Part shown: positions 24,599 through 48,595 of the stretch, piece by piece
Position numbering within the stretch: position 1 is the stretch's first letter
How the letters are laid out: every line of letters begins with the position of its first letter
Notes under the pieces: model-generated
The model's database searches: none
What the model was told of the DNA's origin: nothing
Seen by the model: the letters and a program-made list of their open reading frames with translations, nothing else
DNA from: Candidatus Omnitrophota bacterium
GTDB lineage: Bacteria > Omnitrophota > Omnitrophia > Omnitrophales > Omnitrophaceae
DNA: 57,118 bases
Direction: 5' to 3'
Assembly: GCA_029561555.1 (NCBI GenBank)
Contig: JAKQXH010000080.1
Location: 1-57,118, forward strand
Position numbers and translations under genes: made by a program

Positions 24599-24613
24599 TC
24601 GCGGAAACCTTTT

Positions 24614-27091: not shown

Positions 27092-27135
27092 AAAAAACAA
27101 AAAGGGCCGCCGGTTTTTGACCGATGGCCCTTTCC
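27091..27135 (-). terminator. Intrinsic terminator of the giant gene, probably bidirectional
   Basis: AAAGGGCC...CGGT-loop-ACCG...GGCCCTTT hairpin (27101-27133). On the minus strand it is followed by TTTTTGTTTTTTT, about 28 nt after the giant-gene stop, between convergent genes. Confidence 0.8.
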
Positions 27136-27160
27136 AAAAATCCCCCTGCCTCGTTTGAAA

Positions 27161-30100
27161 TTATGCGGCCCGCAGAATGGCCAAGAATCCCTGAAATTCG
27201 CCCGTCAGCTGGCTGATCCGTTCGGCCAGACTGTCCGTATTGAAACGGAAAAGATCCACTCGCCCCGTTTTCCGGAGCGCCTGATCCATGCCGGGAACCT
27301 TGCTTAATTTTTCGGCATCCCCCGCCAGTCGCGCAAGGGCAAATCCCACGGTATTGCCGTAAAGCCTGAAGTCTTCCCGGGAGATTCCTTCGAGATCTTC
27401 CTCGGCAGGCGTAGCCAATTTGACCGATTGACTGGCAATCAATCCGTTCACGATATCCGGCGAAGCAAGATAAGTGATGTGCGGGGCCAGTTCGGTTTGG
27501 CTCAAAACGGTCTTTCCCGCGCCGCCGAGACTTCTCAGCCTGGGATTCGCGGCAAGACCGTTAAGGAACTTAACCGCCTCGTCCCGAGAAGCAACTTTCG
27601 TCAGCTCAACGCGGCCGAACAAATCCCCGAGTTCCCGTTTCAGGTCCGATTCGAACTTCTCATACCCGGTATCTCCGACGTAAACCACTTCCGCATAGGC
27701 AAGTTTGTTGACGCCCAATTGCACTTTCAAAGCGGAAACGGAAATGTCCTCCGCGGTTGCGGCCAAAACGGCAAATTCGCCCTCGGAACTTTCTTCCCGA
27801 TAGTATGCCGTACGGCCCAATCCCGGATTCAAAGATTCCGCCTGCATCTGAAGCGCGCCCGAAAGTTCGTCCGAGATTCCCGCATCCGGCACCTCTTCGG
27901 CTCCGAAGTAAAGCGCGTGGAAAAACCCGCCGGCTTCACCCGTTTCATGAATCCACCCGGTCAATGTCCTGTTCACGCCGTCCGCCTCAAAAAGGCGCCG
28001 GCCCTGAGCCGACAGAATTCCCATCAGTTGGGCCGCGGCTTCAAATCCCAGACTTTGACCCGAAATATCGTGCCTCTTGTCCAGAGCTTCCATCGCTCTC
28101 ATCGTCCGGAGAACTTCTTCGTCCGGCAGGGAAAGGGCTCCCCATCCGCGCTTCTGCATTTCCCCGGAAAAAGCTTCCCGTGTTGTCTGAACTTTGGCGT
28201 CCGCTTGTCTTAACGCGTCCTGAGATACGCCTTTTGTTCCCTTCAAAGCGTCTCTTTCCTTTAGGGCCGCCTCATACGCGGAAAAGGTCTTCCCCAATTC
28301 GGAAGGCCCGGTTACGCCGAGACTTGCCCCGACCGTCTCCCCGGGCTTAATCAACTCATACATCCCCCGGACCAGAGTATTCACCTGAAACCCGGCCTGC
28401 CGGAAATGTTCAAGCGCCGGATCGGCATTGTCGCCGGTCACGAGATAAAATCTTCCGTCCGGGCGGAGGATTCTGAAAATTTCACGGGCGATCCGTTCGT
28501 AAAAATCTTTCGGATATTTCTCGTAGAAAAGATCGTCCTGCAGAAAATTGGTAATGAACACGACGTCAACCGTTCCGCTTTCGATCATATCGAGATTCCG
28601 CATATCGCCCTGAAGAAGATAAGGCATTACCGTATTCACGGCAACGTCTACCCCCCGGACATAGCTGAACCCGAGTCCGCGCAATGTCCGGACCAGATGC
28701 GCATCCCGGCCGGCTCCGAGATCCAGAATGGTTTTGTCCATCATGCTCAAAAGCGCGTGCATCCGGTCTCCGCTGTATTTCCTCGCCAAATGCGCAAGGA
28801 GAAGCCTGAATTCGGCAACGCTCGGCACCAGCCGCTTAAAAGAAGGCCGGTCCACGTAATCCCGGATCAGTTCAAGGATTCTGTCGTCCACCTGCCGTTC
28901 CATTTCCATGCGAATCAGAGGATAATGATCCAGCAAAGTCATCAACTGCTCCCGGGTAAACACCAAAACATCCAAATCGGTACCCGCAACCACATTGGCC
29001 GTCCGCTCCACGTCCCTCAAAAGGGCAATTTCGCCGAAACTCTCGCCGGGTTGAATGGACGCGATAAAGTGCTGGGCCTCTTCCTCGCCTTTGACCACAT
29101 CGGCCCGGCCGCGCTTCACGATAAAAAATTCCCGCCCGGTCGTTCCTTCGCGGATAACCGTTTCCCCGGCCTTGTATTTTCTTTCGGCGGCTTCCCCGGC
29201 CAGAACGATCAACGCAAAATCGCTCAGGTCCTGGAAGAACTGGCTGGTCTTGGTCGTGTTTTGGCTCCAAGCCTCCAGCGTCTCCAGGTTTTCCCGAAGC
29301 CACTGGACGCGTTCGATGGTTGCCGGACTCCCGAACAGGGCCAGATAAGCCGCCGGCGTCAGGCTGTAAACCTCAAGAGGCTCTTCCGCCACCACCGTCG
29401 CCGTACGCGGTTCCCCGGTCACAATCGACCAGTCCCCGAAATGCGTGCTGGGCCCGAGTTCCGCGACTTTTTTCCCGTCCACATAAACCCCCGCAACCCC
29501 GCTGACGATAAAATAGGCACGCCCCCTGTCTCCTTCGATCTCGGGTCCTTCCGCGCTCAACCCCCTGAATCCGTTGAATGCCATCACGTGGATGCGATGC
29601 CCCTGAATGGTGAGGGTCTGTCCTTTTTGGACCGTTTCGCGGCGGGCAAGACGCTGGAACACATCGTAAAAATCGCCCGATTTATCCTTCATGAGCGCAT
29701 TGGAAGTCAGTACGCCGATTTCATGCAACTGCTGGCGCTCGGTATCCGAGGAAATAAAAGGCGTCGTTTCAAACATTCTGCCCTTAGCCAGACCGAACTT
29801 TTCTTCGACCTTGGAGTCCGGCACATGATACACATTCATACGCTGCCGGACGTCATCCGGCAACTGCGCCAACATCTCAAGCGTGGTGTGAATCGGAGCC
29901 CCTCCCGCTTCATGGTCGATAAAATCGAATTTGGAAGTCCCGTCTTTTTTCACAAACCGGTATTTCTGGGCCCGGCCCTCATTCGGAGTGATTTTTTTCT
30001 CCCGGACCAGCTTGTCGATGAAGGCGGGATCCCATTGTGTGTCCGAAGAATGCGCGTAACGGAACCCGTCATATTCGATGCTGAACCCGTTTGTCGGGAT

Positions 30101-33100
30101 GGAATGAAGATTCCACCAGCTTCTCAAGGTCGCTTCTTTTCCGCTGGGCAATTTTAATTTCAACGGCTTGCCCGGATCGAGCGGGACCCAATCGACGAGC
30201 GCGTGAGGATCCAGTTTTTTATCGATAAATTTCAACAGCAATTCCGCCTTTCTCATGAATTCTTCGTAAACAACCCGGGAAGCGATCAGGCGCACGCGTT
30301 TGCCCATGAGAATTCTTTTCAGCACGCCTCCGTCATGATCCTGATGCGCGTGAGTCAGAAGCACATAGGGGACATCCGCTTCTCCCAATCCCAGCTCTTT
30401 CATGTAATGAAGCCCTTCATGGGAAGGATCCACCCATATTCCCAACCCTTCAAGCCACAAAATCATGCTGGTCGTATCTCCCTGGGGATCAAAGCCGGTG
30501 CTGGTTCCGATCCATGTCCGGGCAAATCCGTCCCGCATCTGCTGAATCTGCGCGGCGGCCTGAGCCGGAACCGGATAATGTTTGGGTTCCGGTAAATCAT
30601 ACCGGACGGGAAGCTGGCCAAGGTCTTTATCGGCCCCGTCTTTCGTTTGGGTCACCTTATAACCGGCAATTTCCCCGTCTTCGGCGCGAACCCTTCTGAT
30701 GTTAATAACCCCCGCCGTCATTTGATTTTCGGCAGGGATAACGACTCTTGCCTGATCGTTCCGTTCCTCGAAAGGAATCATTTCAAGGTATCCCTCGACC
30801 GGAATGATTTTTCCGTCTTTGGAGCGAATCGCATAGTGGTTGTGCATGGCTTTCAGGAAATTCCGGTCTTTCTCCGAAAGCCAGGGGTAAACCGCCGGGT
30901 CGCTTAAATCCGGGCCGAAAAGGGTATGACTGAGATATTCCCTTAAAGCCTCTAGCTGCTCCTTCGTCCCCACCACCTGCGGTTTGGGAACATTCGGATT
31001 GAAAAGACTTCCCTTTACGAACGCGTTGAAATAAATCAAAAACTCCATTTCCCCGTATGCCCGGTTATTCACAAAAAGCTGGGGAGGCAGAACAAAAACA
31101 TACTGTTTTCCGGCGCTGAGATCGCCGAACCCGCGCATCATGTCCTTCAGCGTGTTGGAAACGGCACCCAGGAGAACTTCAACGCCAAGGTCTTCGCTCG
31201 GAACCTTCGGGTAACTTCCCTGACCTAAACTTGCCGCGACTGCAGCCGGCGCGACTTCGACAAAAGCCGCTCCTCCTTTGCTCCGCATCGTCACGATCGA
31301 CTTTAGAGTCCCCAACTTAAAGCCCGGAATGTTATGAACCGCTCTTCCCATCACCTGCAATCGATCGATATAGGGCATATAAAATTCCCTCCCGTTGCCG
31401 GAAAAATCGACGATGTAATACTCGCTGTCTCCCCGGAAAAAAGCAATCCCGACGCAAACCGGAACGGACTCTTCTTCCGTTAAAATAATCAATCTCGGAA
31501 GGGCAAAACTTCCTTTCGCATTGCTCCATCCGATAGATTCCAAACCGGCATTTCTCAGCAGGTCGGAAAACGCCTTTAATTCATTCCCTTCCAGTGAAAG
31601 CAGTTTCTCGCTCCAATTATTTCCGGCGAAGTCTTCTCCCAGGTCGCTTTTCCCGTCCCGTAAAGAAAATCTGTAGGCTTCTCCGCCCAGGCTCTGGCCG
31701 ACAAGAATTTCCGGCACAAAAAAGTCCGCGCCCGCCTCCGCACCGGCCGGTTCGACTGTCAATCGGTATGCGCCAATCCGGCTGGTTAACTCAAGCCGTA
31801 ATTGCCGTCTGACCGGACGCGCGGCCCGAGGAAAGTACACCGCAAAGGTTGTAGCGGCCTCAAACTGACCCATGTTTTGAACATCTGCCCTTTCACCCGT
31901 TTTCCCGTTAACCAAAGCGACGGAAACCCCCCGAAGACTGATCGAAGGATCAAAAACTCTCGCGCTGACCCGTAATGCCTGCCGCCCCACTCTCCAGGCG
32001 GTCAGCTCAATATGATCGCCGACTATTTGGTTCTCACCGCCCACGCCGGGAAACTGAAGTTGAGTGAGCATTGTACCCAGTTCGTTCAAGGCCGCTTCCA
32101 ACTCGTCGCCTTGATCCGCTTCCGTTCCCAGGCTTGACGCCTCGCCAAGAAAAATTTCCGGCTTAGGCTTTGCCGCCAAAAAGTCATCCAGTTTCCCGGC
32201 AAGAACGGGATATTGCCCGCGAAAATCCTCGTCGCCGCTTAACTCTTCATTATTTCTCCAAACCATATCCGTCGCCCGGGCAACCGCCCCGCTGTCCGTT
32301 TCGCTCAATCCTTCCAGATCCTTTCGTTCTCCTTCCTCAAGAACCGAAAGAGCCCGAGCGGCCCTGTCCAAGCGGGCCGAAAGGAAAGCGTCCCCGTAAG
32401 GCCCCATGCTGAAATCAAGAGCCCAATCCGCCACCTTTTGCAAATCGTCCAGATCATACTGAAATACCGCCTGCATCAAAGCGGTCAGCGGATCCGCTTT
32501 GGAGCAGTCCGCGTCCGGGTTGGCGTAATATTCGGTTTGAACCATGAAATAAACTTCCGTGCACCAGTAATCCCAGTAAAGCATCAGATAATTCGCCAGC
32601 GCATACATCGGCAGAGTCAGCTGGGTCAAGTCGACCAATTGATCGATCTGTTTACGGTTGTAACCGACCAACCGGCGGATATGTCCTTTTTCCACAATAT
32701 AGCGAACCCAGTCTTGAAGCCGCAGAGGGATAACTTCCTCGTCAATGGCTTGCGCCACATCGCCCCGGCGCCCTAACTGCACGAATTCATACAGCATTTT
32801 TTTGAGTTGAGAACGGTCCCAGGTGTCCTTCCCGCTCAGTTCGCCCAAAAGTTTGCGGAACCGCTCGTCAATTTCAGTGGGCGTCTCCTCGACCAATCCC
32901 CTCTCCTCCCGGATAACCGCCGGAATCTTGCCGACAAATTCTTCCACCGTCGCTTCATTGATGTTGTTCGCTTCGATAAATTCCTGCGTCTTTTTCATAA
33001 ACACAATCATGTCGCGGACGATTTCGGGATCCGTGATCTGATGCATCTGCTGGACCCGATCCAGCAAAATTTTGAATTCCCCCGTCAAGATCGGCAGATA

Positions 33101-36100
33101 CGCATAAAACACGTCCGATGACCCGCCGGCCATAAAACGATTCGCCAAAGGCAACGCCTGCCCCATCAGATTCATCAATTCCTCAAACTGGCGCGGAATA
33201 ATCCTGAAAAGGACGCCCCAGTCCTCTTTTAAAAGATGCTCAACCCATTCGTCCGCCGAATTAGGAAGCCTCTCGGGTTCCATGATGCGGATCCCGTCCC
33301 GTTCGACTTTCACGGCTTCCCTTAAAATTTCGGTGATCCGGTCTTTGGAAAGATTCGGCGCGTTCAGCTGACTGAGAAAATACTGCGCCAGATCCCGTGT
33401 TTCCTCAAAAAGAGTCCCGCCCAGATATTGACCGACTTCCTGCGCGAACATGTCCGCATCCACCTTATGATCCATCCCAAGCGGCAGGCTGGCGGCCCCG
33501 TAAACATGGGCATCCGTCACATAGTGATAGGCTAAAGTTTTTCTTTCATCATAAACGCTTCCTTTTTCCGCCGCGGCAATCAGGATGTCCGCGTAAACAT
33601 GCCGCCCGTCAATCAGGGCTTCTTTTGCACGCAAAAACTCGGTGATTTTTGCCTGTTCGTCCGTCCTCAGCGCCCGGAAACGGACCAGGTCTCTCAGAAT
33701 CGCCACATATTCCACGGTACCGGACTCCTTGGCCTGCCGCTTTGCGGGATCCGTGATATCCCTCTGGGCAGATTGATTCAACGTGTATTTCAGGCGGTAA
33801 CGGTCGATGTGATGCGGAAGCAATTGATTCGCAAGGAAAAGTTCAATGGCCTCGACATCGGGATAATCAAAAATTCTCCAGTTGATCTCAATAACATTGT
33901 CCTGGCGTTTGGATCGTCCCATCACATCAAGATCGTTTGTAAAACGGATCAGCCGAGTCGCAAAAATCCTCTTGGCGTCGCCGTTCTGCGCTTCAACTGC
34001 CCTCAAGAAAGCCTCGGCTCTCTCGGTGCCGACAAAACCAGCCAATTGTTCCTGGACCTGCGTAAAAAGCCCTTCTAAGTCTTCGAGCTCTTCCGCCGGT
34101 TTTGGGAGAAACCCTTCCGCGCCGGCTTCCGGCCCCGCAAGTTGGAGATGTCCCTTTTCCCCTCCTAAGCTCGCGGCCTGCGCCAGTTTCCGGACCCAGG
34201 CTTCTTTCACGCCTCCGGAGCCCTCGATTCTTTGCCCTTCAGGCGTTTGCCTCCAAGCTTCTTCGATCCGTTCTCCCGTCAAAAGCGCGGCGTTCGGATT
34301 GTCGGAGGTGAAAAACCACGCGCCCGTTTTATCCATTTTTTTCGCGCCCAATTCGGTCGCGATCAGAACCGTCCGCGGCGCAAGATACAACGCGCTCGGC
34401 GTGAACGGAGGGTTCGGTCTGCCGGGAAAAGAGTCCGCGGCACTTTCGAGTTTATGCGTTTGATCCCCCACCATAACAATGTTCACCGTGTCCGGATTCA
34501 TCGACCGCTCGATCACGTTCCCGGTCTTCTGTGTCATGGACCACGGCGGAGTGCCGATGCCCGACGGATCGCGTTCGGCCGAAAAATAATTCAGTAACTT
34601 CTGGAATTCCCGGATAAATTCCTCCTCCGATTCAAAGCGGTAATCCCGTTCCAGATAGTTTTGGATATCCTCGAAGCGGTGCGTCATCGAGAAATTCAGG
34701 AGGTCACTCACAAAATTGATCCCGAGTTTTCCCATCAGACGCAAAAATCCCTTGTGAAATTTCATGTCTCCGCCAAAATGGCCGAAGTTCTGCACCTGCG
34801 TCGTCTCGCTGTGCCGCTGCAAACCATCCGCCTGAAGAATCGAAGCCGGATAATCGAAACGCGTGAGCGTGTCGGGGAGATCAAGCATTTTCCGGAGATC
34901 CGTTATAATCTCCCCCATTAAAGCGATCATCCGAAGCTGAGATTCGGTAAACCCGTCATGGCGGCCCGTCCCCAGCCCTCTTAAATTAACCAAAGAGGTT
35001 TCGGGCTCAAGCGCAAATCGCGACATGTTTCTGATAAAACGGTCCTCCGCCTCCCCGTAGGACCCGAACAAAACCGGGGGCGACACAAATCGCCGGTCAA
35101 GCTCTTCTTCCGTCCAATGCGGAAGCGCGTTGCGAAGCAGCATGTATTTCTGCTCGTTCCGGTAGGCGCCGAGTTCATATTTCAAACGATAGGCTTCTTC
35201 GTCGAATTTCTCCCGATCCCAGGGATGAGGTGCCGGCCACCAAAAGTCATCCAACCCCAATTTTTTCAGCACCTCCGGATCCCGCCAGACATAATCGTCC
35301 AATGTATGAACGCCCCGGGCCTTGCCCCACTCGGGATGCTGGTTAAAAACTTCTTTGGCCAGATTCATAAGCCCTAACACTTTGCGAAGAGACTCTGTCG
35401 TCCCGCCCGTCGCGAGTCCGAATGTGAATTCCCTCTGCGCCATTTCCATAAGACGCAAGATGACATACATTGCGGCATAGGTCATCGCATTATCGTCTTC
35501 AACGATAATTTTGATAAACCCCGGCCGGGGATCCAGCACCAGAGCCAGAAGCTTTTCTTCGTTGATGTATTCAAGTCCTTTGCCCTTCGGAACCAACAGG
35601 CCCGTTGCGCGATACCCCTTGCCGTTGAAGCGATAGACTTTCTCATGAGTCGGATTCATGATCAGGCGCTTCGCGTCCGGGAATTCCTTCCGCACATTGG
35701 CCGGAAGAATCAATCCCGACGTCGCCGCGCTTCCCAAACTGCCGGCGTCAACCAGCCGGACTGCGTTGTCCCAACTTGCGGGAGTGTCTTCGGCTCCTTG
35801 ATATGGTTTTCCGGTTCTTTGCTCTTCGCTTGATCTCACAAAAGCGATTTGCATCGACATTAAAATATCCCGATACAAAGCCCTGAAAGCTTCGATCACA
35901 TCATTGATTAATTGATTGCGCTGTTCATTGCCGGGATTCCCGAAAACATTGAATATCGCGTTCAAAGCCAGAAAAGACTCTTTTAATTTCGGCAAATATC
36001 TTTCGACCACTTTCCCGTCAAAGCCTTTCTCCGTTTTAAAGCGTTCGAGCACGGAAATAATCACCCTTTGTTCTGCGATTTCTTCACCCAGAGTCGCTTC

Positions 36101-39100
36101 TTCTGACGTCAATATTTGGGCCATCGCTTCCACTGTCATCCGAACTCTCTCCGGAAGTCGGGCTTTCGCTTCCTCCCAGGAAAGTCTTGCCCCCAGGCTT
36201 GAAGCAGATTCGGTTTTAGCGGCCTGCAAGATTTCCCGAAGTTGCCGCCGATCCGACATTAACGCTTTAACTGCCCCGGTAATTTGCTCGCCCGTTACGG
36301 ATTCCGTGAGATCTTTTCTCTCCGCAACCGCACCGGAAACTTTCACCTGAAACGCTTCCGCCCCCATTTCTTCAATGGTGGTCGTCAGCAATGCGCCGGT
36401 CAGAAAATTGAGCCCTATTTCGCGGCGGCCAAACATCCTCTCCTCTAGCCCTTCACTCGCGGCCCGTTCTTTCACGGCCTTCGCGATCTCCTGCGCCGCT
36501 GCCGTTTTCAAATTTACATTGCCCAAAGACGACGCCGCTGCTTTTCTGAAAGCGTCCCGGAGCATCGCCCGGTTTCCCGCGTTGTCCACAAGACGCATGA
36601 AAACACCCTGGCCGCCCTGCTCCGCTCTTAAATCCGTCAGCGCCTGATAAGACGCCTCCGCAAAATAATCCCTCACCAAATTCGGGCTCACACGATCAAG
36701 ATACCCCTTGGCAAATCCGATCGCGGGCTTTCCCGGAATCGGATCTTCCGAGACAAAGGAAATAATGAACGGCATGTATTTCTGAGGTTGCGCGAGGACC
36801 TGCTGGTAGCTGATATGCTGATCCCCCGTCCCCTGCATGACCCACTCGATGCCCATGGCGATCAATGCGTCCCGCAAGTCAATGAATTTCCCCCCCTCTA
36901 AATAAATGAAGGGCACCAGTTTTCTTCCGCTTGCACGCGCGGTATCCATTGCCGTTCGGATCAAAAGGGTCAAAACAGCCGACGCATTTTGCGCATTGAT
37001 TTTAGGCATGGAAAGAGTCGCGATTTCCGGGACATTGCTCAAAATATGATGCCCCTGAGCCAAAGACAAAACCTCCCCCAAAGCATTTTGAACCGCTTCC
37101 GGATCGGTTTGGGCCGCCTCTTGCAGGGCCTTCAGGCGTTTCTCCAGAAGTCCTTTTCCCAGCTCCACGTAAGGCTGCCGGACATAAAGATTCTGCTGGA
37201 GAATCTTGGTTGCGTCCTTATCCAGATTGCCAACATCAACGTCTTCCACTCTCAGGCCCGCTTTTTCTATCGCGCGCGCGATCAGGCGATTGCCGACCGT
37301 GGCCGTCATACCGTAAAAAATCGTGTTGAGTTCCGCAAACGCTTCGGCTAACGCCTGCTTGTCCCGGGTTTGAAGATCCGGGAGGCGGAAATAATAGGTC
37401 GGATAATCCGCCTCGGAAATCATGCGCGATGAGAGATTGATCACCAACTTATTCTTTGCCCCGCGATAATGTTTTTCCTGGGCATCCCAATCGCTTTGAC
37501 GAATCGCAACGAGATTCGCGAATCCTTCCTGCCAAATGCTTTCGTTAAAATTCTGCTCGATCGATTTTCCAAACCAGAAATACTCGTCGGGAACGACCAG
37601 CGCGATATCCGTGACCTCCCGGTCGAGGACCGCGTTCCCGAGCCTCACGCCCGCATGAATCCCTTCCCGGACCTGCTCGACATTTTCATGCCGCACCCTC
37701 CAATACCGCTCCGCATCCAAATCATGAAACGCGAGAAAGGTCATCATATGGAGGTCTCCCGTCCAGCGCCCTCCCACATTATCGAACATGGCCCCGAACC
37801 CCGGCGCGTCTCCTCCCAATTCCCCGTCCAATCCGGAATTCCGGATAAACGCGGACAAACGGCTCTGTTCCGGACGATCCGTCGTTTCAAAAAACATATT
37901 CCCGAGAACGATTCCGAAAATCTTCCTTACCTGCTCGGGCGTAACGCTTAATCCCCTCGCTTGCGCTTTTTGCGAAATCAACGCAAGCAGACTCGTCGTG
38001 CCGAAACGCTCCTCATCCACTTTAAAAAGGTCTTTTCCCGGCCGTTCTTTCCCGTTAACGAAATTCACTTCATGCAATGTCGCAAGTACGGTATCCGCGA
38101 ATTGTTTCCCGGCGATTCCTTGTTTTTCCGAAATATTTTTCAGGATCGCATAGAAAATATCGGTAAAAATCATCATTGTTTCGTCCGTCGAACCCGATTT
38201 CGAACTGGGAATGACCGCGATTTGGTCCCAATCCGCCCCAATCGCTTTCAACGCCGCTGCGATAGATTCCTCATAATTTTTCCCAAGTTCATATTCGCCG
38301 ATAATCAGGCCCGTTGTTGGGTCAATTACCTGAAAGACATCCGCAATCCCCTGAAAAGGCGTGTGCTGGCCGCCGATTCCCGGTTTGATCACATAACGAA
38401 TGGGTTTTCCGAGTCTTTCGGCGCGCCTTGCAAAAAATTGCTTCATGCCCGTTACGGTATCAAGAAACGCCTGTCTCCCCGTTTCTTTTCCGCCGGCATC
38501 GACCGTAAAATATCCCTGATTTCCTTCGAAGGCAAACGAACCGGCCACGGCCGCCCCTTCCGCAACGCCGTAACCGTCCTGTTCGTATCCGCCCTTCTCA
38601 TAGCGTTTTGCCGTTTCCGCATTTCCATGAGCATCAAGCGGGGTGCTCAATGCTTCGGCAATCATCGCGCCTTTTACGGCTTCCGCGCCAAGACTGGATG
38701 CGGCGGCAACCAAAGCGATCAGTTTTTCCACGTCCGGACGAATTAAAGCAAATCCTCCGGATACCGCGGCGGCGTCCCGGCTCATTTCCAAAAACGGCCT
38801 TAAATTTTCCAAAGCCCTTGCCGCGGCGGCAAAATCCTCCCGCGTCCCTTGCCGTGCAAACGCTTCCACCGAATAGAGGACGCCATCCGTTGTCTGACTG
38901 GCCGTGTCAGAGTTAAAATCCGGACCTTTCATGGTTGCCCGGATCGTTTCGACCCATGTTAAAATTTCTTCTCCGAGGGCCGCGCCGGAAGCCAAAGCAT
39001 AAGCCCGCTGCCGATTTCTCTCCAGCTGATCGACCAGCAATTTAATTTGTCCGGCAGTCGGTTTTTCCCTTAAATCCGTTCTCGCCATCACCGCATCCGT

Positions 39101-42100
39101 CACATCGCGAGTCAATTGTTCAAAACCCGGCTTGGCCAAACTGCTCGTCAATAATGCGCCGACCAACAGATTTAACCCGCTGTTTCCTTTCAAAACGTTT
39201 TTCGGGACTCCTCCGCCGATCGCGTATTGTCTGACGATATTTACCATTTCCGCCGCAACGGCCGTTTCCAAACTCACCTGTCCTTCCGCGCCAAGACTCG
39301 CGGCCTGGGCAGGAGGCTGATAAGTGTCCTCCGGCAGTCCGTCACGGTAATACTCCTGATACGCGTCCCACCCCTTCTCCATCCCGTTCGTCACATACTC
39401 TTCGGGCACAAATCTCCCGTGCAAAGCCGTAATCTCCCCGCTGTAGCCTCCCAACACCGCCGCAAACCTCGCCAGCTCCTTCTTATTATCCCCCATCGCG
39501 TATGACTTCGACTTCGCGTCCGTCCCGGACGGCCGGATCTCCAGCACCTTGTTCGGGAACTTGAAAAACACCCCGTCTCCCACAAAATATATCCCCTCCA
39601 GGTCGCTGAAATCCAACCCCTCGTCCCGGAACGCGTCATTCAATATCTCGATCACCTGCTCCTTCGTGAGCTTCCCGTCCCGGTGCGCCAGCGCCATACT
39701 CAGGAAAAATACGTAATTCTTCGTACGTCTCCCTTCCCCTTCCTTCTTATCCGCCTTCAGCGCGTCAGGATCGGGATTGTTCTGATTGTAATAAACCGTG
39801 TCCTCTCTCACGTCAAACCGCGCCTTGATGTCGTTCGCGTCAAACAGCTCCTGCAGATAATCCGACAGCATCTTCCCCTGCGACTCCAAATGCGCCGCCA
39901 TCGCTGCCTGGATCACCAACGCCTCTCCCGCGCTCTTCTCCCGCATCGCGATCGCCTTACGGCCCCCGACGCTCTCGATCAGCTCCTCGGGACCGATAAT
40001 CATCCCTCCCGACTCTTCTCCCGCGAACAGCATCCTCGGATCCACTCCCAGATTCACCTCTTTCCCGAATACGTCTCTCACGATCACGGGCTCGCCCGGG
40101 TGATCCGCCATCTGCGCCTCAACCTTCTTCATCATCGCCGCGATTTCCTTGAAGCCTACCGGCACGCTCAGCACCTTCACCCCGTTCTTCTCCGCCCATT
40201 CAACCCATGCCGCGGACGACGCCGTCGTCGTGATGATAAATCTCGGATGGTCCCACCACTTCCTCGGCTCCGTGTACCCCAGCGCTTTCTCTTCTTCCGT
40301 CAAGGCCCTCTTCTTATCGCTCTTCGCCGCCTTCAACGCCTCAGCCTGATACACCATCGTCATGAAAAACGACTGGTTCGGCGTGTACAACGCCACAATC
40401 CTCTTCTCATCCAATACCAGATAATCCACTCCCACAGACCTCAAAAACTCTATGCGGTCTGCCGACTCCACCTGCGCCGTCACCAACCGGTCCCCGTCGG
40501 GGTCCGTCATCAATATCGTCGTCCCAACAGGCTTGTCCGCCAGCAGCTTGTCGTAGCCCATTCGCTCCATGACCGGGATCGACTTCACCTCTCCCGTCTT
40601 TTTGTCCCGCTTGATAATCGTCGTATCCTGCGTGTAGTCGTTATACTTCCCGTCTTCCGTCAATTCCTTGCCGATCCCGTGAAAATACGGGTCCTCCTCA
40701 ACGTGCAGCCACTCGAACGAGTCACCGATCCCGAGCCGCTCAAATATCTTCGTCATCGTCCGGTGCATCGACCCTCCGACGCTGTCGATCAGGATCTTCG
40801 AACGCGCGTCACGGATTCGGCCCAGATTCACCTCCGTCGCAACTCCCTTCCTTAAATACTCCACGTACGGAATAATCCCATTCTCAATCGACTTCATGAA
40901 CTCATCGTCAATCAACGCGTCATCCGCAGCCCCGATCTCAAACGTGAACTCCCCTTCGTCGTCCGCTCTCTGAAACGCCTCATGGATCTTCGACACGAAC
41001 TGCACGGACTCCTCAGGCAGATATTGGCTCCCCTGATTGTTGATGTCCTTCGTCGCCGCGAAACTCGACCCCGCGTGTGAACTCGTCGCGTGCTCCGCCC
41101 CAACCAGGTCATACATGAACGCCAAATACGACACCATCCAGATCGGAAGCGGCACCCGCCTCATCACCTTCCCGTGCGCGTCCTCCATCTCCTCGATCCC
41201 GTACGGAACATACGTCCGTATCCCGAGCGCCGCGTTGATACGCGCGATCATGTCCACAAAACGGCCCGTGTTGTATCGGACTTCCCCTCCGGCCATCTTA
41301 CGCAATGCCGCTCCGGGAAACTTCTCATTCACCACCACTCCTTTCGCCCAGGTCGCGAACGCGATTCCGATTTCATTAATACGGTTCCGCGTGTCCCATG
41401 GGTACAGCACGTTCTGCGTCAGCCGGATTCCCGCCGTCGCAACTTTTGCCTCGGCCTCATAATCCTCAAGCCATTTCCACAATCCCAATCCTTCGGGATT
41501 CGTCACAGGATCATAATCGTACAAATGCTCCTTCTTCAACCGGGCCACAATCCGCCCGTCATCCGTAATGTCAAATACGGGGTTCCCGGCCTTGATATGC
41601 GCCGGTGTCTTCTCGTCCACCTGCGCTAAATACACGTCCCGCAAATTGGGCCTGACGGGGCCCAGTACCGGCGCTCCGCCCAGCGATGCGCCTTTTGAAG
41701 GAATAAAAGGATCTACCAATCGAATATCCCTGCGAATGTCTTCGAGAGAACGCGCGCTTGCTCTTGTTGTGCTGAAAATCTGAACGGTACCGGTCCTTAT
41801 CCCTTCAACAATAGCCGGTGCGCCCATCAAGCGCCTAAAAACACTTTGCGCGGACGGCCCATCCCCCGGTAAAAATTGATCGACAAAGAGTTCTTCCCCC
41901 CTGCTGCCCGCCAACAGTTTCGTCAAGCCTTCAAGTTCTTTTCCTTCGATTAACCGAAACCGATCCCGATCTTCTTCTGAAATCGGACCCACTAAAAGCA
42001 ACTTTCCCTCTTCATTTTTATAAACCGCGACCCATCCATTTTGAATGCGCGGAATAACCCGGTTTCGGGCAAGCACCGACGCAATTTCGCTGTCTTTTTT

Positions 42101-44305
42101 GGGAAGAGCTTGATGCACGGCGAGCCTCGGATAAGTCTGTGCGGGATATCGTGAAAAAAACACCTGCAATCCTTCTTCCCGGCTCAAGGGAGAATAATCG
42201 CCGAGAGACGCCGCTTGGGGAAGGTTTTGAATGCCGGCGGGTTGTAAAACGGCCGGCGGCAATGACCCCAAATTCAATCTTCGGAGTTCGTCGTTCGTCG
42301 AAACAGCCTGAACGTCTCCGGCCGGAGAAAGTTTTCTATCGAGAGGCTGAATCAAAACCAGCGGATAATTCCCCCTGACGCGCAAAACATCCGAGGGAAT
42401 CAGCGCAACGGCACGGTTTCCGGTATCTCCGTACGCCGGGATAATCCGTACCCCGTCGTCACGGACCAAAGGATTTTGCTTCAGTTCGTCAAAATAACGG
42501 TTTAAAGCATCGACAAAAGCATTCGGATCGGTTTGCAGGGAAGGGTTTGTGTTGAGCAAATGCTCGGCAAGAGGCGCCACCGCATAAATCAAGGCGCCTA
42601 AAGCGACCTTTTCCTGCCGGATCGGATCGCCCGGGTTCAGCTCCGCATAGACTTTTTGATCCACCGCCTTCAAGGCCGCCACGATTTTGCCTGCCGCAGC
42701 GGATTCGCCGGATTTCGGCGCCGTTTCCCCGAGAAATTCTTCAAGCCGGGTTTTCCCGTTGAGAATTGTTTTATGATAATTTCCCGTTTTGTCTTCCTTT
42801 GATAATTTGGGCTCGATCACCACATGGGCGATATTTTGATCCTCGAGAATTTTCTGAATTCCCTGCGTATGGAACCCGCCCGAAATCAAGACAGCGTTTT
42901 TGAGTTTCTTTTCCCGCGCTTTTCCGAGCAACCGCTCGATAAAGGCGTGTTCGCGCTCCATGGCAAGATCGTAAAATGCCTGCGCGTCCTGAATCGCCCG
43001 ATCGGTTCCGCCGAGGGACTCCTTTTCTTCCGAATCCGAAAGGGTATTCAATGAAGCTATTTTTGCCGCCAAACACGAGGCAGTCAGTTCTTTCTCTCGC
43101 GATTTAAACGAAAGATATTCTTCCCTCGAAACCTCGAGGCGGAGGAATTTCTCAAGAAGCTTCAGATCCCGGCTGATTCCGACGATGGTCCGTTCTTCTT
43201 CCGTCCGGATCAAGAATTCATAGATCCCGGCTTCCAGGGCGGTGATTTCGTCGAAGAAATCTTTCGCGTCGATTTCATCCTGAAGAATGAGATATTTGGC
43301 GAAATTCCCGAATGCCGGATAGGTCTCCGGGGAAATATTCCGTTCGGCGCAGATCCCGTAAAGCGCTTCGAAAAAATATCTCGCCGGAAGCGGCCGGTCC
43401 CAACCGAGGCCTTTCAAATCTTTCAGCGTGGCAAGAACAAATTCCCGTTCGGGGTCTTTTCCCGAAACGCCGTCCTGAATCGCCCGAATCAACGCTTCCT
43501 TTTCTCTCAGGGCCCGATCCGTGTTCTTCTTCAATTCCGGCTCTAACCGCGCGAGAACCGACAAACGGACCAGATTGGGGAATTCACCCTGCTCTTTGGG
43601 GTCCGTAAGGTCCAGCTTCAAAAATCTTTCGGCGGCCTTCCTTAAGTAGCGGCCGTAGTGGAAAAGCGTGTCTTTCCCGTCGCCGAACGCGTTTTTCTTC
43701 GCGTCAAATTTTCTGAGATCGGAGGAAAATTTCTTTGTTTTCAGCGCGATTAAATCTTTTCCGGCTTTCTCGAAAAATGCCCGGTGGGAATTCCATTTCT
43801 CTAAAGTGGCCCGGTAAATCGCAAGGTCTTTGCGGTAACCGTCCTTGTCCTCAAGACCGATCCAGTCAATATCGGCCCGGCCGTTTTCCACCGCAAAAGA
43901 TTCCGCGCCGGTCAATTCCCCGTCTCTGACCAATGAATCAATAACGGCGGCATTGGCCTTTTCCACGGGGAAGAACCGGAAAAGTTCCGGCCGAAGACTG
44001 CCGGACGCCCCTTCGAGACCGATCAAGCGAACCTGATATTTTTCGACCAACTCATTCAAAATGTTTTTAATATGAAGTTGGGCCTCGTAATTGGCGTGCG
44101 CGTCCTGAATATGAATAATCAAAGGAAGCTCGCCCTCGGCGCGGTAGTTGACCGATCCGGCCTCATCGGAAATCCGGATGATCGAATTCCGGTCGACGAG
44201 TTTTTGGAAACGCAAAGGCATTTCCGCCGGATAAGGCGCCGCTCCAAAAACGTTGGTGACCGTAAAGAAAAAAATAACCCCCGAAGAAAGAATTTTCTTA
44301 AACAT
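27161..44305 (-). CDS. Giant (~5714 aa) exported modular multi-enzyme protein
   Basis: Uninterrupted 17.1 kb ORF. GAGGAGG RBS 7 nt before ATG 44305; signal-peptide-like MFKKILSSGVIFFFTVTNVFGA; 14 xxSLG-type linkers; several recognisable enzyme domains. Confidence 0.95.
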   Translation of the reverse strand: MFKKILSSGVIFFFTVTNVFGAAPYPAEMPLRFQKLVDRNSIIRISDEAGSVNYRAEGELPLIIHIQDAHANYEAQLHIKNILNELVEKYQVRLIGLEGASGSLRPELFRFFPVEKANAAVIDSLVRDGELTGAESFAVENGRADIDWIGLEDKDGYRKDLAIYRATLEKWNSHRAFFEKAGKDLIALKTKKFSSDLRKFDAKKNAFGDGKDTLFHYGRYLRKAAERFLKLDLTDPKEQGEFPNLVRLSVLARLEPELKKNTDRALREKEALIRAIQDGVSGKDPEREFVLATLKDLKGLGWDRPLPARYFFEALYGICAERNISPETYPAFGNFAKYLILQDEIDAKDFFDEITALEAGIYEFLIRTEEERTIVGISRDLKLLEKFLRLEVSREEYLSFKSREKELTASCLAAKIASLNTLSDSEEKESLGGTDRAIQDAQAFYDLAMEREHAFIERLLGKAREKKLKNAVLISGGFHTQGIQKILEDQNIAHVVIEPKLSKEDKTGNYHKTILNGKTRLEEFLGETAPKSGESAAAGKIVAALKAVDQKVYAELNPGDPIRQEKVALGALIYAVAPLAEHLLNTNPSLQTDPNAFVDALNRYFDELKQNPLVRDDGVRIIPAYGDTGNRAVALIPSDVLRVRGNYPLVLIQPLDRKLSPAGDVQAVSTNDELRRLNLGSLPPAVLQPAGIQNLPQAASLGDYSPLSREEGLQVFFSRYPAQTYPRLAVHQALPKKDSEIASVLARNRVIPRIQNGWVAVYKNEEGKLLLVGPISEEDRDRFRLIEGKELEGLTKLLAGSRGEELFVDQFLPGDGPSAQSVFRRLMGAPAIVEGIRTGTVQIFSTTRASARSLEDIRRDIRLVDPFIPSKGASLGGAPVLGPVRPNLRDVYLAQVDEKTPAHIKAGNPVFDITDDGRIVARLKKEHLYDYDPVTNPEGLGLWKWLEDYEAEAKVATAGIRLTQNVLYPWDTRNRINEIGIAFATWAKGVVVNEKFPGAALRKMAGGEVRYNTGRFVDMIARINAALGIRTYVPYGIEEMEDAHGKVMRRVPLPIWMVSYLAFMYDLVGAEHATSSHAGSSFAATKDINNQGSQYLPEESVQFVSKIHEAFQRADDEGEFTFEIGAADDALIDDEFMKSIENGIIPYVEYLRKGVATEVNLGRIRDARSKILIDSVGGSMHRTMTKIFERLGIGDSFEWLHVEEDPYFHGIGKELTEDGKYNDYTQDTTIIKRDKKTGEVKSIPVMERMGYDKLLADKPVGTTILMTDPDGDRLVTAQVESADRIEFLRSVGVDYLVLDEKRIVALYTPNQSFFMTMVYQAEALKAAKSDKKRALTEEEKALGYTEPRKWWDHPRFIITTTASSAAWVEWAEKNGVKVLSVPVGFKEIAAMMKKVEAQMADHPGEPVIVRDVFGKEVNLGVDPRMLFAGEESGGMIIGPEELIESVGGRKAIAMREKSAGEALVIQAAMAAHLESQGKMLSDYLQELFDANDIKARFDVREDTVYYNQNNPDPDALKADKKEGEGRRTKNYVFFLSMALAHRDGKLTKEQVIEILNDAFRDEGLDFSDLEGIYFVGDGVFFKFPNKVLEIRPSGTDAKSKSYAMGDNKKELARFAAVLGGYSGEITALHGRFVPEEYVTNGMEKGWDAYQEYYRDGLPEDTYQPPAQAASLGAEGQVSLETAVAAEMVNIVRQYAIGGGVPKNVLKGNSGLNLLVGALLTSSLAKPGFEQLTRDVTDAVMARTDLREKPTAGQIKLLVDQLERNRQRAYALASGAALGEEILTWVETIRATMKGPDFNSDTASQTTDGVLYSVEAFARQGTREDFAAAARALENLRPFLEMSRDAAAVSGGFALIRPDVEKLIALVAAASSLGAEAVKGAMIAEALSTPLDAHGNAETAKRYEKGGYEQDGYGVAEGAAVAGSFAFEGNQGYFTVDAGGKETGRQAFLDTVTGMKQFFARRAERLGKPIRYVIKPGIGGQHTPFQGIADVFQVIDPTTGLIIGEYELGKNYEESIAAALKAIGADWDQIAVIPSSKSGSTDETMMIFTDIFYAILKNISEKQGIAGKQFADTVLATLHEVNFVNGKERPGKDLFKVDEERFGTTSLLALISQKAQARGLSVTPEQVRKIFGIVLGNMFFETTDRPEQSRLSAFIRNSGLDGELGGDAPGFGAMFDNVGGRWTGDLHMMTFLAFHDLDAERYWRVRHENVEQVREGIHAGVRLGNAVLDREVTDIALVVPDEYFWFGKSIEQNFNESIWQEGFANLVAIRQSDWDAQEKHYRGAKNKLVINLSSRMISEADYPTYYFRLPDLQTRDKQALAEAFAELNTIFYGMTATVGNRLIARAIEKAGLRVEDVDVGNLDKDATKILQQNLYVRQPYVELGKGLLEKRLKALQEAAQTDPEAVQNALGEVLSLAQGHHILSNVPEIATLSMPKINAQNASAVLTLLIRTAMDTARASGRKLVPFIYLEGGKFIDLRDALIAMGIEWVMQGTGDQHISYQQVLAQPQKYMPFIISFVSEDPIPGKPAIGFAKGYLDRVSPNLVRDYFAEASYQALTDLRAEQGGQGVFMRLVDNAGNRAMLRDAFRKAAASSLGNVNLKTAAAQEIAKAVKERAASEGLEERMFGRREIGLNFLTGALLTTTIEEMGAEAFQVKVSGAVAERKDLTESVTGEQITGAVKALMSDRRQLREILQAAKTESASSLGARLSWEEAKARLPERVRMTVEAMAQILTSEEATLGEEIAEQRVIISVLERFKTEKGFDGKVVERYLPKLKESFLALNAIFNVFGNPGNEQRNQLINDVIEAFRALYRDILMSMQIAFVRSSEEQRTGKPYQGAEDTPASWDNAVRLVDAGSLGSAATSGLILPANVRKEFPDAKRLIMNPTHEKVYRFNGKGYRATGLLVPKGKGLEYINEEKLLALVLDPRPGFIKIIVEDDNAMTYAAMYVILRLMEMAQREFTFGLATGGTTESLRKVLGLMNLAKEVFNQHPEWGKARGVHTLDDYVWRDPEVLKKLGLDDFWWPAPHPWDREKFDEEAYRLKYELGAYRNEQKYMLLRNALPHWTEEELDRRFVSPPVLFGSYGEAEDRFIRNMSRFALEPETSLVNLRGLGTGRHDGFTESQLRMIALMGEIITDLRKMLDLPDTLTRFDYPASILQADGLQRHSETTQVQNFGHFGGDMKFHKGFLRLMGKLGINFVSDLLNFSMTHRFEDIQNYLERDYRFESEEEFIREFQKLLNYFSAERDPSGIGTPPWSMTQKTGNVIERSMNPDTVNIVMVGDQTHKLESAADSFPGRPNPPFTPSALYLAPRTVLIATELGAKKMDKTGAWFFTSDNPNAALLTGERIEEAWRQTPEGQRIEGSGGVKEAWVRKLAQAASLGGEKGHLQLAGPEAGAEGFLPKPAEELEDLEGLFTQVQEQLAGFVGTERAEAFLRAVEAQNGDAKRIFATRLIRFTNDLDVMGRSKRQDNVIEINWRIFDYPDVEAIELFLANQLLPHHIDRYRLKYTLNQSAQRDITDPAKRQAKESGTVEYVAILRDLVRFRALRTDEQAKITEFLRAKEALIDGRHVYADILIAAAEKGSVYDERKTLAYHYVTDAHVYGAASLPLGMDHKVDADMFAQEVGQYLGGTLFEETRDLAQYFLSQLNAPNLSKDRITEILREAVKVERDGIRIMEPERLPNSADEWVEHLLKEDWGVLFRIIPRQFEELMNLMGQALPLANRFMAGGSSDVFYAYLPILTGEFKILLDRVQQMHQITDPEIVRDMIVFMKKTQEFIEANNINEATVEEFVGKIPAVIREERGLVEETPTEIDERFRKLLGELSGKDTWDRSQLKKMLYEFVQLGRRGDVAQAIDEEVIPLRLQDWVRYIVEKGHIRRLVGYNRKQIDQLVDLTQLTLPMYALANYLMLYWDYWCTEVYFMVQTEYYANPDADCSKADPLTALMQAVFQYDLDDLQKVADWALDFSMGPYGDAFLSARLDRAARALSVLEEGERKDLEGLSETDSGAVARATDMVWRNNEELSGDEDFRGQYPVLAGKLDDFLAAKPKPEIFLGEASSLGTEADQGDELEAALNELGTMLTQLQFPGVGGENQIVGDHIELTAWRVGRQALRVSARVFDPSISLRGVSVALVNGKTGERADVQNMGQFEAATTFAVYFPRAARPVRRQLRLELTSRIGAYRLTVEPAGAEAGADFFVPEILVGQSLGGEAYRFSLRDGKSDLGEDFAGNNWSEKLLSLEGNELKAFSDLLRNAGLESIGWSNAKGSFALPRLIILTEEESVPVCVGIAFFRGDSEYYIVDFSGNGREFYMPYIDRLQVMGRAVHNIPGFKLGTLKSIVTMRSKGGAAFVEVAPAAVAASLGQGSYPKVPSEDLGVEVLLGAVSNTLKDMMRGFGDLSAGKQYVFVLPPQLFVNNRAYGEMEFLIYFNAFVKGSLFNPNVPKPQVVGTKEQLEALREYLSHTLFGPDLSDPAVYPWLSEKDRNFLKAMHNHYAIRSKDGKIIPVEGYLEMIPFEERNDQARVVIPAENQMTAGVINIRRVRAEDGEIAGYKVTQTKDGADKDLGQLPVRYDLPEPKHYPVPAQAAAQIQQMRDGFARTWIGTSTGFDPQGDTTSMILWLEGLGIWVDPSHEGLHYMKELGLGEADVPYVLLTHAHQDHDGGVLKRILMGKRVRLIASRVVYEEFMRKAELLLKFIDKKLDPHALVDWVPLDPGKPLKLKLPSGKEATLRSWWNLHSIPTNGFSIEYDGFRYAHSSDTQWDPAFIDKLVREKKITPNEGRAQKYRFVKKDGTSKFDFIDHEAGGAPIHTTLEMLAQLPDDVRQRMNVYHVPDSKVEEKFGLAKGRMFETTPFISSDTERQQLHEIGVLTSNALMKDKSGDFYDVFQRLARRETVQKGQTLTIQGHRIHVMAFNGFRGLSAEGPEIEGDRGRAYFIVSGVAGVYVDGKKVAELGPSTHFGDWSIVTGEPRTATVVAEEPLEVYSLTPAAYLALFGSPATIERVQWLRENLETLEAWSQNTTKTSQFFQDLSDFALIVLAGEAAERKYKAGETVIREGTTGREFFIVKRGRADVVKGEEEAQHFIASIQPGESFGEIALLRDVERTANVVAGTDLDVLVFTREQLMTLLDHYPLIRMEMERQVDDRILELIRDYVDRPSFKRLVPSVAEFRLLLAHLARKYSGDRMHALLSMMDKTILDLGAGRDAHLVRTLRGLGFSYVRGVDVAVNTVMPYLLQGDMRNLDMIESGTVDVVFITNFLQDDLFYEKYPKDFYERIAREIFRILRPDGRFYLVTGDNADPALEHFRQAGFQVNTLVRGMYELIKPGETVGASLGVTGPSELGKTFSAYEAALKERDALKGTKGVSQDALRQADAKVQTTREAFSGEMQKRGWGALSLPDEEVLRTMRAMEALDKRHDISGQSLGFEAAAQLMGILSAQGRRLFEADGVNRTLTGWIHETGEAGGFFHALYFGAEEVPDAGISDELSGALQMQAESLNPGLGRTAYYREESSEGEFAVLAATAEDISVSALKVQLGVNKLAYAEVVYVGDTGYEKFESDLKRELGDLFGRVELTKVASRDEAVKFLNGLAANPRLRSLGGAGKTVLSQTELAPHITYLASPDIVNGLIASQSVKLATPAEEDLEGISREDFRLYGNTVGFALARLAGDAEKLSKVPGMDQALRKTGRVDLFRFNTDSLAERISQLTGEFQGFLAILRAA
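28331..28800 (-). other. Domain of giant protein: class I SAM-dependent methyltransferase
   Basis: ILDLGAG (motif I), GVDV, QGDMRNL, VDVV, IFRILRPDGRF. Confidence 0.8.
28880..29730 (-). other. Domains of giant protein: two cyclic-nucleotide-binding domains
   Basis: AYFIVSG...HFGDWSIVTGEPRTATVVA and FFIVKRG...SFGEIALLRDVERTANVVA phosphate-binding cassettes. Confidence 0.9.
29770..31222 (-). other. Domain of giant protein: metallo-beta-lactamase-fold hydrolase (RNase Z / cNMP phosphodiesterase-like)
   Basis: WIGTSTGFD, IWVDP, LLTHAHQDHDGG (HxHxDH), LHSIPT, SSDT, HEA, IHTT, VYH. Confidence 0.85.
34178..35731 (-). other. Module of giant protein: glucosamine-6-phosphate deaminase (NagB)-like
   Basis: FGLATGGT (cf. 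GLATGST), TLDDY (cf. NLDEY), GLGTGRHDGFTE (cf. GIGxxGHIxFNE), IVMVGD. Confidence 0.65.
36536..38686 (-). other. Module of giant protein: glucose-6-phosphate isomerase-like (SIS fold)
   Basis: GIGGQ, SSKSGSTDET, ETTD, NVGGRWT, NES, GTGDQH, QPYVELGK. Confidence 0.8.
39305..41677 (-). other. Module of giant protein: alpha-D-phosphohexomutase (PGM/PMM)
   Basis: TAGIR, TSSH phosphoserine loop, DPDGDR metal loop, GEESGG sugar loop, IRPSGT phosphate loop. Confidence 0.9.
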
Positions 44306-44352
44306 GCAAAGCTTCCTCCTCATAATTTGATCTGAAAATTAGATGTGCTTAA

Positions 44353-48581: not shown

Positions 48582-48595
48582 GTCCTGCTATTGTT

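Follow-up and report, generated by a model that had tools for sequence, protein, structure and literature searches.

We analyzed a 57,118-nucleotide stretch of DNA from a Candidatus Omnitrophota bacterium (assembly GCA_029561555.1, contig JAKQXH010000080.1, positions 1 to 57,118 of the forward strand; hereafter the window) and focused on a single giant gene on its minus strand. The open reading frame (ORF) is open for 5,720 codons (27161..44323, translation table 11), about 17 kb without a stop in one frame, and takes up 30% of the window. Translation from the ATG at 44305 gives a product of 5,714 amino acids (aa), and the JGI and NCBI gene callers arrive at this same start and product; the 5,720-aa form is the call in the Logan assembly. 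Full-length, near-identical copies are present in three independent assemblies (JGI, NCBI/ENA and Logan), which argues against a chimera. A first, sequence-only reading had described one ORF with its own promoter, ribosome-binding site and terminator, and we found a promoter-like site, an AGGAGG and a hairpin followed by a U-run where these would be expected. The hairpin (GGGCC-A-UCGGU/ACCGG-C-GGCCC, then U5GU7) has a folding energy of -22 to -24.5 kcal/mol (z = -2.8), and a simple terminator scanner missed it because of its bulges. We conclude that the stand-alone giant gene is genuine. Its product is best read as a head, a series of cassettes separated by SLG motifs and a tail, with about 14 complete proteins strung together after an export signal. 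The features of the gene and its product, all on the minus strand, are as follows.

44353..44381, minus: sigma-70-like promoter candidate, TTGACT-17 nt-TATATT with a TG extension (10 of 12 consensus positions matched; a consensus match only)
44315..44320, minus: Shine-Dalgarno sequence AGGAGG, 9 nt upstream of the ATG at 44305, read directly
27161..44305, minus: coding sequence, 5,714 aa; stop TAA at 27161-27163; alternative ATG at 44323 gives 5,720 aa
44237..44305, minus: signal-peptide-like N-terminus MFKKILSSGVIFFFTVTNVFGAA, MFKK plus 17 hydrophobic residues plus VFGAA
42209..44236, minus: head unit, a conserved domain of about 490 aa with a helical insert of about 300 aa, plus about 180 aa to the first strict motif
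41687..42208, minus: cassette 2, 174 aa, no family found
39299..41686, minus: cassette 3, 796 aa, putative divergent alpha-D-phosphohexomutase by Pfam, with TSSHAG, DPDGDR, GEESGG and RPSGTD readable
38696..39298, minus: cassette 4, 201 aa, helical, paralogue of cassette 6
36530..38695, minus: cassette 5, 722 aa, predicted PGI fold, equal end to end to a stand-alone family of about 700 aa
36200..36529, minus: cassette 6, 110 aa, paralogue of cassette 4
35741..36199, minus: cassette 7, 153 aa, no family found, ends at the variant DAGSLG
34172..35740, minus: cassette 8, 523 aa, weakly NagB-like, 77% identical to giant P0003 from SLG to SLG
32135..34171, minus: cassette 9, 679 aa, no family found
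31232..32134, minus: cassettes 10 and 11, 147 and 154 aa, no family found, GQSLG at 31693 between them
28325..31231, minus: cassette 12, 969 aa, with an N-terminal region, a metallo-beta-lactamase (MBL) hydrolase (HAHQDH), two cyclic-nucleotide (cNMP)-binding domains and an S-adenosylmethionine (SAM) methyltransferase
28055..28324, minus: cassette 13, 90 aa, no family found
27164..28054, minus: tail, 297 aa, begins at SLG and contains the variant RLRSLG
27091..27136, minus: intrinsic-terminator-like hairpin and U-run, about 25 nt past the TAA stop

Pfam confirmed the PGM-like, MBL, cNMP-binding and methyltransferase domains that had been named from the letters of the sequence. The matches comprised two cNMP_binding domains (1e-32), Lactamase_B_2 and Methyltransf_11, together with PGM_PMM III of cassette 3, which scored above its cut-off (35.6 bits); PGM_PMM II and IV fell below theirs and PGM_PMM I was undetected. 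Most of the remaining ~2,500 residues had no match. The claimed PGI module was recovered by fold and not by sequence: Pfam PGI (PF00342) did not match cassette 5 at E <= 1, and a profile of 32 members of the cassette 5 family had no match among PDB sequences. An AlphaFold model of cassette 5, made from an alignment of 32 relatives, reached a pLDDT of 91.8 and a pTM of 0.92, and the top 43 matches of this model in a Foldseek search of the PDB were all glucose-6-phosphate isomerases (probability 1.0, E to 1.5e-7, TM-score about 0.5 on the target). The PGI (double SIS) fold predicted for cassette 5 is confirmed at the level of the modelled fold, and the motifs SSKSGSTDET, GGRWT and NES are invariant in its family. 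The NagB-like label of cassette 8 survived only as a resemblance, with phmmer giving weak matches in three co-linear stretches to two NagB chains, which are glucosamine-6-phosphate deaminases (E = 0.023 and 0.048), and Pfam giving none. For the sequence-level assignments of PGI to cassette 5 and NagB to cassette 8, the Pfam and PDB phmmer searches were negative or weak. PGM, the PGI fold, MBL, cNMP binding and methyltransferase all lie in one ORF, which places the giant in the multi-enzyme class of such proteins. We also observed that cassettes 4 and 6 are helical paralogues (36% identity over 94 aa, E = 3e-13), each of which starts at an SLG directly after an enzyme cassette, PGM-like in one case and PGI-like in the other.

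The borders between these units are marked by a short peptide. The giant contains 15 copies of SLG where 2.3 are expected; 12 of the 15 fit [AG][ASQ]SLG, and DAGSLG and RLRSLG are two more near variants. Over all giants of the genome the junction logo is [AV]-x-[AG]-[ASQ]-S-L-G. The strict motif occurs 1.07-1.37 times per thousand aa (kaa) in these giants, compared with 0.013-0.014 times in ordinary ORFs, a density about 75-100 times higher. The median distance between motifs is 437 aa, and in nearly every head-bearing paralogue the first motif falls at residue 590-730, where it closes the head unit. At the junctions serine is encoded by both TCN and AGY, and the leucine and glycine codons vary as well; therefore the constraint acts on the peptide. 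These freely varying codons also rule out a repeat or recombination site at the level of DNA.

Comparison with homologues showed that what lies between two motifs can be a whole protein. The BLAST segments that the giant has in common with the orthologous giants P0003, P0004 and P0005 begin 3 aa before an SLG and stop just past the next one. P0003 is 55% identical in the head, 77% in the NagB-like cassette and 55% in the tail; P0004 and P0005 are 55% identical in the PGI-like cassette; the middle cassettes differ among these orthologues. Conservation of the tail is limited to P0003, P0004 and P0005, in which it sits at the C-terminus or close to it, and we therefore rejected the tail as a feature of the whole family. 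About 45 stand-alone proteins (650-790 aa, 50-61% identity) align over their whole length to cassette 5, from 1-10 aa past its SLG to 0-20 aa before the next. A 723-aa paralogue in the same genome (contig C107) matches it at 57% identity from SLG+3 to SLG-3. Likewise, the first ~785 aa of cassette 12 correspond to stand-alone MBL-cNMP proteins of 720-810 aa, starting about 5 aa past the SLG. Cassette 5 and the first ~785 aa of cassette 12 are therefore whole-protein units lying between junctions; no stand-alone relatives of cassette 8 appeared in the search. As judged from these alignments, the motifs are true borders between cassettes.

The family to which cassette 5 belongs is of interest in its own right. 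These PGI-fold proteins of about 700 aa stand alone in many metagenome-assembled genomes (MAGs) of Omnitrophota and Elusimicrobiota and match nothing in Pfam or among PDB sequences. The member from the same genome is P0147 (C107_-0_530_817, 723 aa), with relatives P0126-P0186. No canonical PGI (PF00342) was found in this genome, which is 83% complete, and the ~700-aa family may therefore be its real PGI; more broadly, it may be the PGI that had seemed to be missing from these genomes. Other members are fused to transaldolase (P0177), to 6PGD and PF01182 (P0180) or to PGM domains (P0150, P0184). Three stand-alone members, P0129, P0139 and P0161, have their own N-terminal extension of about 50 aa that is signal-peptide-like or lipobox-like (for example ...FLMAC in P0139), which hints at exported versions of the enzyme outside the giants.

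We found that the head (query, residues 30-705 of the giant) defines a large family. The search returned 124 giants of 3-8 kaa, mostly annotated as Candidatus Omnitrophota with some Auribacterota and Elusimicrobiota, and a scan of GTDB representative genomes placed the head in at least 586 loci, almost all of them in Omnitrophota; the named relatives are nearly all Candidatus Omnitrophota MAGs. These homologous giants resemble one another only in the N-terminal head, the cargo being otherwise very different: PPDK, PGK, TIM, PFK, hexokinase, SecA-like domains, kinases and Lon all occur behind it. In the genome of the giant itself (2.22 Mb in 109 contigs), the head is present in 23 ORFs and is invariably N-terminal. 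These include head-only proteins, C63_-1_17292_710 (710 aa) and C104_+1_1216_663 (663 aa), which have neither cargo nor SLG motif; should the head prove to be a protease or a carrier, they could be free-standing versions that work in trans. Altogether, 46 ORFs of at least 1,500 aa hold about 22% of the coding residues of this genome, and one contig, C95, carries three head-bearing giants and a truncated fourth giant ORF.

Across 21 diverse heads, six residues (H35, E63, R416, G441, G442 and H444) never vary and H30 hardly does, giving an H-x4-H, an E, an R and a GGFH (HIQDAH ... E ... R ... GGFH). We take this His/Glu/Arg/GxxH pattern to be equivalent to the motifs of TIKI proteins. The model of the head (pLDDT 88) has a split alpha/beta core and the helical insert of about 300 aa. 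Pfam matches all remained below the gathering score: PF04187 in 5 of 21 and 6 of 19 members (best E = 2.3e-4), and PF05139, PF01963 and PF18950 in one or two members each. These sub-threshold matches converge on ChaN (which Pfam assigns to the "Tiki superfamily"), erythromycin esterase, TraB/PrgY/GumN and DUF5694, and the signal became stronger after the insert was removed. The likeness to the TIKI/ChaN/Ere/TraB enzymes lies in the split alpha/beta core, the histidine motifs near both ends, the presence of a helical insert and, as predicted from the N-terminus, an extracytoplasmic location; the head differs in the size of that insert, the sub-threshold Pfam scores and the insignificant Foldseek result given below.

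The punctuation is specific to the genome. R[SA]ExR, GAR[LM]A or RTSPM takes the place of SLG in other giants that bear this head, and agreement within a genome extends to the variable fourth residue, with RSESR in three CAZDVO loci and RSE in three JBDRCT loci. In a tree of 140 heads, the SLG proteins of this genome fall in two deep, well-supported clades, where they are interleaved with RxExR proteins of other genomes; therefore recognition is a property of the genome. A third large clade consists mostly of proteins without a detectable motif and includes the C43 giant of the same genome (4,487-aa ORF, P0058), which bears the head and many transmembrane (TM)-like segments and has 2 SLG where 2.1 are expected. 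Two architectural subclasses, SLG-punctuated and C43-type, therefore coexist in this genome. A head acting as a cis-protease, with a specificity that tracks head phylogeny, was not supported, since no motif type forms a single clade in the tree and the motif is missing from one giant that has the head. A concerted, genome-wide change of a peptide signal is expected if each genome has one recognition factor, for which an endopeptidase is the simplest candidate; the pattern also speaks against heads that each fix a specificity of their own.

The sequence-only reading had placed enzymes of a cytoplasmic type behind an export signal, and the following observations agree with it. The N-terminus is the sole segment of the giant with a Kyte-Doolittle score of at least 1.6, and a signal-peptide-like N-terminus is present in 66 of 72 scorable homologues, preceded by K/R in 65 of those 66. 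The punctuated paralogues have no hydrophobic segment between the head and the first motif. Because neither the giant nor these paralogues has a second hydrophobic segment, their topology would take the entire chain across the membrane. A hidden TM helix past the head that returned the cargo to the cytoplasm was sought and, for this subclass, rejected: the best candidate in the giant, VALGALIYAVAPLAEHLLN, reaches no more than 1.44, and nothing of the kind lies there in the punctuated paralogues. About half of the wider head family does have TM segments past the head.

Cysteine has been purged. The giant has 6 cysteines in 5,720 residues (0.10%), and 12 of its 15 SLG-bounded segments have none; the giants of the genome contain 0.30% cysteine compared with 1.23% in 1,323 ordinary ORFs. 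Cassette 12 has no cysteine in 969 aa, whereas its stand-alone homologues, which lack a signal peptide, have a median of 0.9-1.1%. Further, the genome holds normal, well-conserved stand-alone PGK, TIM, SecA and PGM/GlmM genes and a PGI-like gene; therefore the cassettes are extra, more divergent copies. For PGK, TIM, SecA, PGM and the PGI-like protein, these stand-alone copies rule out that cassettes are the only central enzymes of the cell. Cargo of the paralogues also includes HATPase_c, receiver, SNF2, HD and adenosine deaminase domains. One punctuated paralogue, the C36 giant (L083), combines GDE_C and a GH77 amylomaltase with an SNF2-related ATPase domain and a C-terminal fragment of fumarase, an odd set for an exported protein.

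Taken together, we lean, by a little better than an even chance, towards a model in which the giant is a Sec-exported polyprotein that is cut at the motif. The protein would consist of a signal peptide that targets it to Sec, a head of about 500 aa (a candidate divergent TIKI/ChaN/Ere-like hydrolase), about 13 cassettes and a tail, with [AV]-x-[AG]-[ASQ]-S-L-G at each junction and each cassette a complete, independently folding protein. Sec would export the chain, and an endopeptidase, either the head domain or a separate enzyme, would afterwards cleave it at the junction motif with a specificity that differs from genome to genome. Cytoplasm-type enzymes, in copies that lack cysteine, would thereby be set free outside the cytoplasm. 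The earlier reading is upheld for the giant gene and its signal-peptide-like N-terminus; where it took the product as one giant surface protein, the anatomy points instead to a polyprotein whose units are probably separated. Surface display, like delivery to a prey or host cell, is to us a minority reading.

Several observations weigh against this model. The head is a probable but unproven candidate for a TIKI-superfamily hydrolase, and the assignment is weak: Foldseek found nothing significant in the PDB in a search that the ~300-aa insert dominates, the best-superposing related match being EreC (TM-score 0.20-0.25, E ~2), and PDB profile searches and NCBIfam likewise returned nothing significant. 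The 23 heads of the genome have low mutual similarity (phmmer E 1e-22 to 1e-68 against this head) and fall in separate deep clades, which makes a shared cis-specificity awkward. The C43 giant, with no SLG enrichment, shows that head and motif are separable. The model of cassette 5 is helical almost to both junctions, so the sites are not in long disordered linkers. Finally, the SAM methyltransferase, the cNMP sensors and the cargo of the paralogues would lack their ligands in a periplasm, a tension under which the cargo may act in another cell or return to the cytoplasm by a route not yet recognised.

We considered whether the giant could instead be an uncleaved multi-enzyme scaffold at the surface or in the periplasm, with SLG serving as a docking, hinge or modification site that is read by a partner specific to the genome, for instance a chaperone, a glycosyltransferase or the head domain. 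Published work takes these proteins as single giant membrane or surface proteins, Pfam recognised no protease domain in the giant, and the junctions are short and helix-flanked in the model, all of which suit a scaffold. Against it, cassettes correspond to whole stand-alone proteins whose natural N- and C-terminal ends coincide with the motif, they are functionally unrelated and shuffled among orthologous giants at the motif, and nothing here suggests a modification sequon. A motif that changes in concert across a genome is, moreover, the behavior expected of protease sites, as in viral polyproteins. We judge a scaffold to be possible and on balance unlikely. Also considered was an artefact of assembly or gene calling that joined separate genes, since the sequence was assembled from a short-read metagenome. 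With a 17-kb frame free of stops under table 11, full-length near-identical ORFs from three independent assemblies, a head and tail common to orthologous giants and more than 120 homologous giants known, an artefact is exceedingly improbable.

The remaining explanations concern where the cassettes act. The giant could be a cytoplasmic polyprotein whose N-terminus does no more than anchor the head in the membrane or direct it there, so that cassettes are released inside for the metabolism and signalling of the cell itself. This would suit a cargo of cytoplasmic type that needs SAM, cNMP or ATP, the stand-alone homologues of cassettes 5 and 12, which mostly lack signal peptides, and the absence of a canonical PGI (PF00342) from the 83%-complete genome; the TM segments past the head in about half of the wider family could also put cargo back inside. 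In the giant and its punctuated paralogues, nevertheless, a second hydrophobic segment is absent, the K/R that precedes the hydrophobic core favors an N-terminus inside and the rest of the chain outside, housekeeping copies are already present (including the stand-alone PGI-like paralogue), and the strong purge of cysteine relative to cytoplasmic homologues would be left unexplained, which makes this explanation distinctly improbable. A rival that is also a sub-case of our model, and the bolder idea of the sequence-only reading, is an effector array that would enter a host or prey cell and be processed inside it in the manner of a MARTX toxin, its sugar-phosphate enzymes and cNMP-gated hydrolase then acting on host metabolism. 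It would reconcile the export signal and the cysteine purge with a cargo that needs cytoplasmic cofactors, since SAM-, cNMP- and ATP-dependent enzymes fit another cytoplasm better than a periplasm, and the sugar-phosphate cargo together with the glycogen-degrading cargo of the C36 giant would mobilise storage sugars. The phylum includes predatory, host-attached members, and a giant protein is up-regulated on prey, according to West-Roberts et al. (2023, bioRxiv 10.1101/2023.11.21.568195). Pfam, however, detected neither RTX repeats nor a C80 protease nor any module for translocation or pore formation, and no secretion-system genes adjoin the giant gene; we regard an effector array as doubtful.

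Known systems share parts of this anatomy. Viral polyproteins, such as those cut by picornavirus 3C or potyvirus NIa, also hold several complete proteins in one ORF with a short consensus at the junctions, and the consensus is uniform within a genome and different between lineages. The giant differs in lying on a cellular chromosome among about 23 such genes, in its metabolic and signalling cargo and its signal peptide, and in that its cleavage and its protease are proposals. MARTX toxins of Vibrio and relatives are exported giants whose exchangeable enzyme modules are freed by processing at short sites and shuffled between strains. An array of exchangeable enzyme modules in a giant bacterial protein is common to both, whereas our giant has an N-terminal Sec-type signal, a different head and cargo that resembles housekeeping enzymes and not known toxins; Pfam (E <= 0.01 for the whole protein, E <= 1 for modules) found in it no RTX repeats, C80 protease or type I secretion signal. 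TpsA/CdiA and Rhs proteins have a signal peptide and a conserved N-terminal domain before a large variable cargo, with delimiter motifs such as VENN or DPxGL, and so resemble the giant in having short peptide motifs that border exchangeable parts. They carry one terminal toxin cassette, however, compared with about 13 serial enzyme cassettes here, and the TPS domain of TpsA/CdiA is beta-helical whereas our head is alpha/beta plus helical; no TpsB-like partner adjoins the giant gene.

The giant is a smaller relative of the published multi-enzyme giants of Omnitrophota (West-Roberts et al. 2023; Nielsen & Lui 2026, bioRxiv 10.64898/2026.06.07.730766), the second study having described both a multi-enzyme class and an "SP-only" topology class. 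In this family as in theirs, one ORF is tiled by unrelated enzymes (PGM, methyltransferase, HATPase_c and glycogen enzymes among them), none of which dominates, and the giant has a predicted signal peptide as in the "SP-only" class; at 5,714 aa it falls under the catalogue thresholds (>= 10 kaa and >= 30 kaa). The paradox of glycolytic-type enzymes predicted outside the cell has already been noted in this literature. West-Roberts et al. (2023) suspected cleavage of the Omnitrophota giants and gave the cut points as unknown; the missing cut points are said to block analysis module by module, and it was asked whether the giants stay one chain or are cut. A term search of that study gave no description of a conserved head or a junction motif. 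In the text of Nielsen & Lui (2026) that we searched, cleavage, polyprotein, linker and Tiki are not mentioned, and our literature search returned no paper pairing "Omnitrophota" with "polyprotein". Thus, the class of giants is published, and we found no published description of a genome-specific punctuation or of the head-cassette-tail anatomy.

The surroundings of the gene are unrelated to it, with a DsbD_2-like gene and a polyferredoxin gene upstream and a convergent 153-aa ORF, an ETF gene and an ETF-QO gene downstream; therefore the label of a standalone transcription unit is reasonable. Rfam and tRNA scans of the whole window gave no matches. At 44564-49765, next to the giant gene, lie genes for the DsbD_2-like membrane protein, the membrane polyferredoxin, a 749-aa spermidine-synthase-like protein and a radical SAM enzyme, and we saw no link between this cluster and the giant. 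On the plus strand, 22730-26578 encodes the ETF-ubiquinone oxidoreductase (622 aa) and, after it, a 654-aa protein that has two ETF domains and ETF_alpha and appears to be a fused ETF beta/alpha. Also on the plus strand, 18679-21126 encodes an 815-aa protein in which a pyridine-nucleotide-disulphide oxidoreductase is joined to rhodanese, TusA and DsrE-like domains, by appearance a sulfur-trafficking enzyme.

A bolder extension of our model, which we put forward as speculative and hold to be unlikely, is that the lineage spends about one fifth of its coding capacity on Sec-targeted polyproteins made of cysteine-free duplicates of cytoplasmic enzymes and signalling proteins, with a genome-specific pentapeptide "cleavage code" (here [AG][ASQ]SLG) and a dedicated protease, and that the released units work in the host or prey as a MARTX-like array of metabolic enzymes, draining storage sugars towards fructose-6-phosphate. 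Apart from that extension, the giant and the 23 head-bearing ORFs of its genome provide candidate cut sites for Omnitrophota giants at the level of single residues, and the stand-alone proteins that start and stop at the motifs are an independent check that these candidate sites are real borders. The motif offers a rule for dividing thousands of unannotated giants into foldable units, and the analysis exposes a PGI-fold family of about 700 aa that is invisible to Pfam. For the question of whether cytoplasm-type enzymes are exported by nanobacteria, and hence for their life on hosts, both the purge of cysteine and the duplicate housekeeping genes are relevant.

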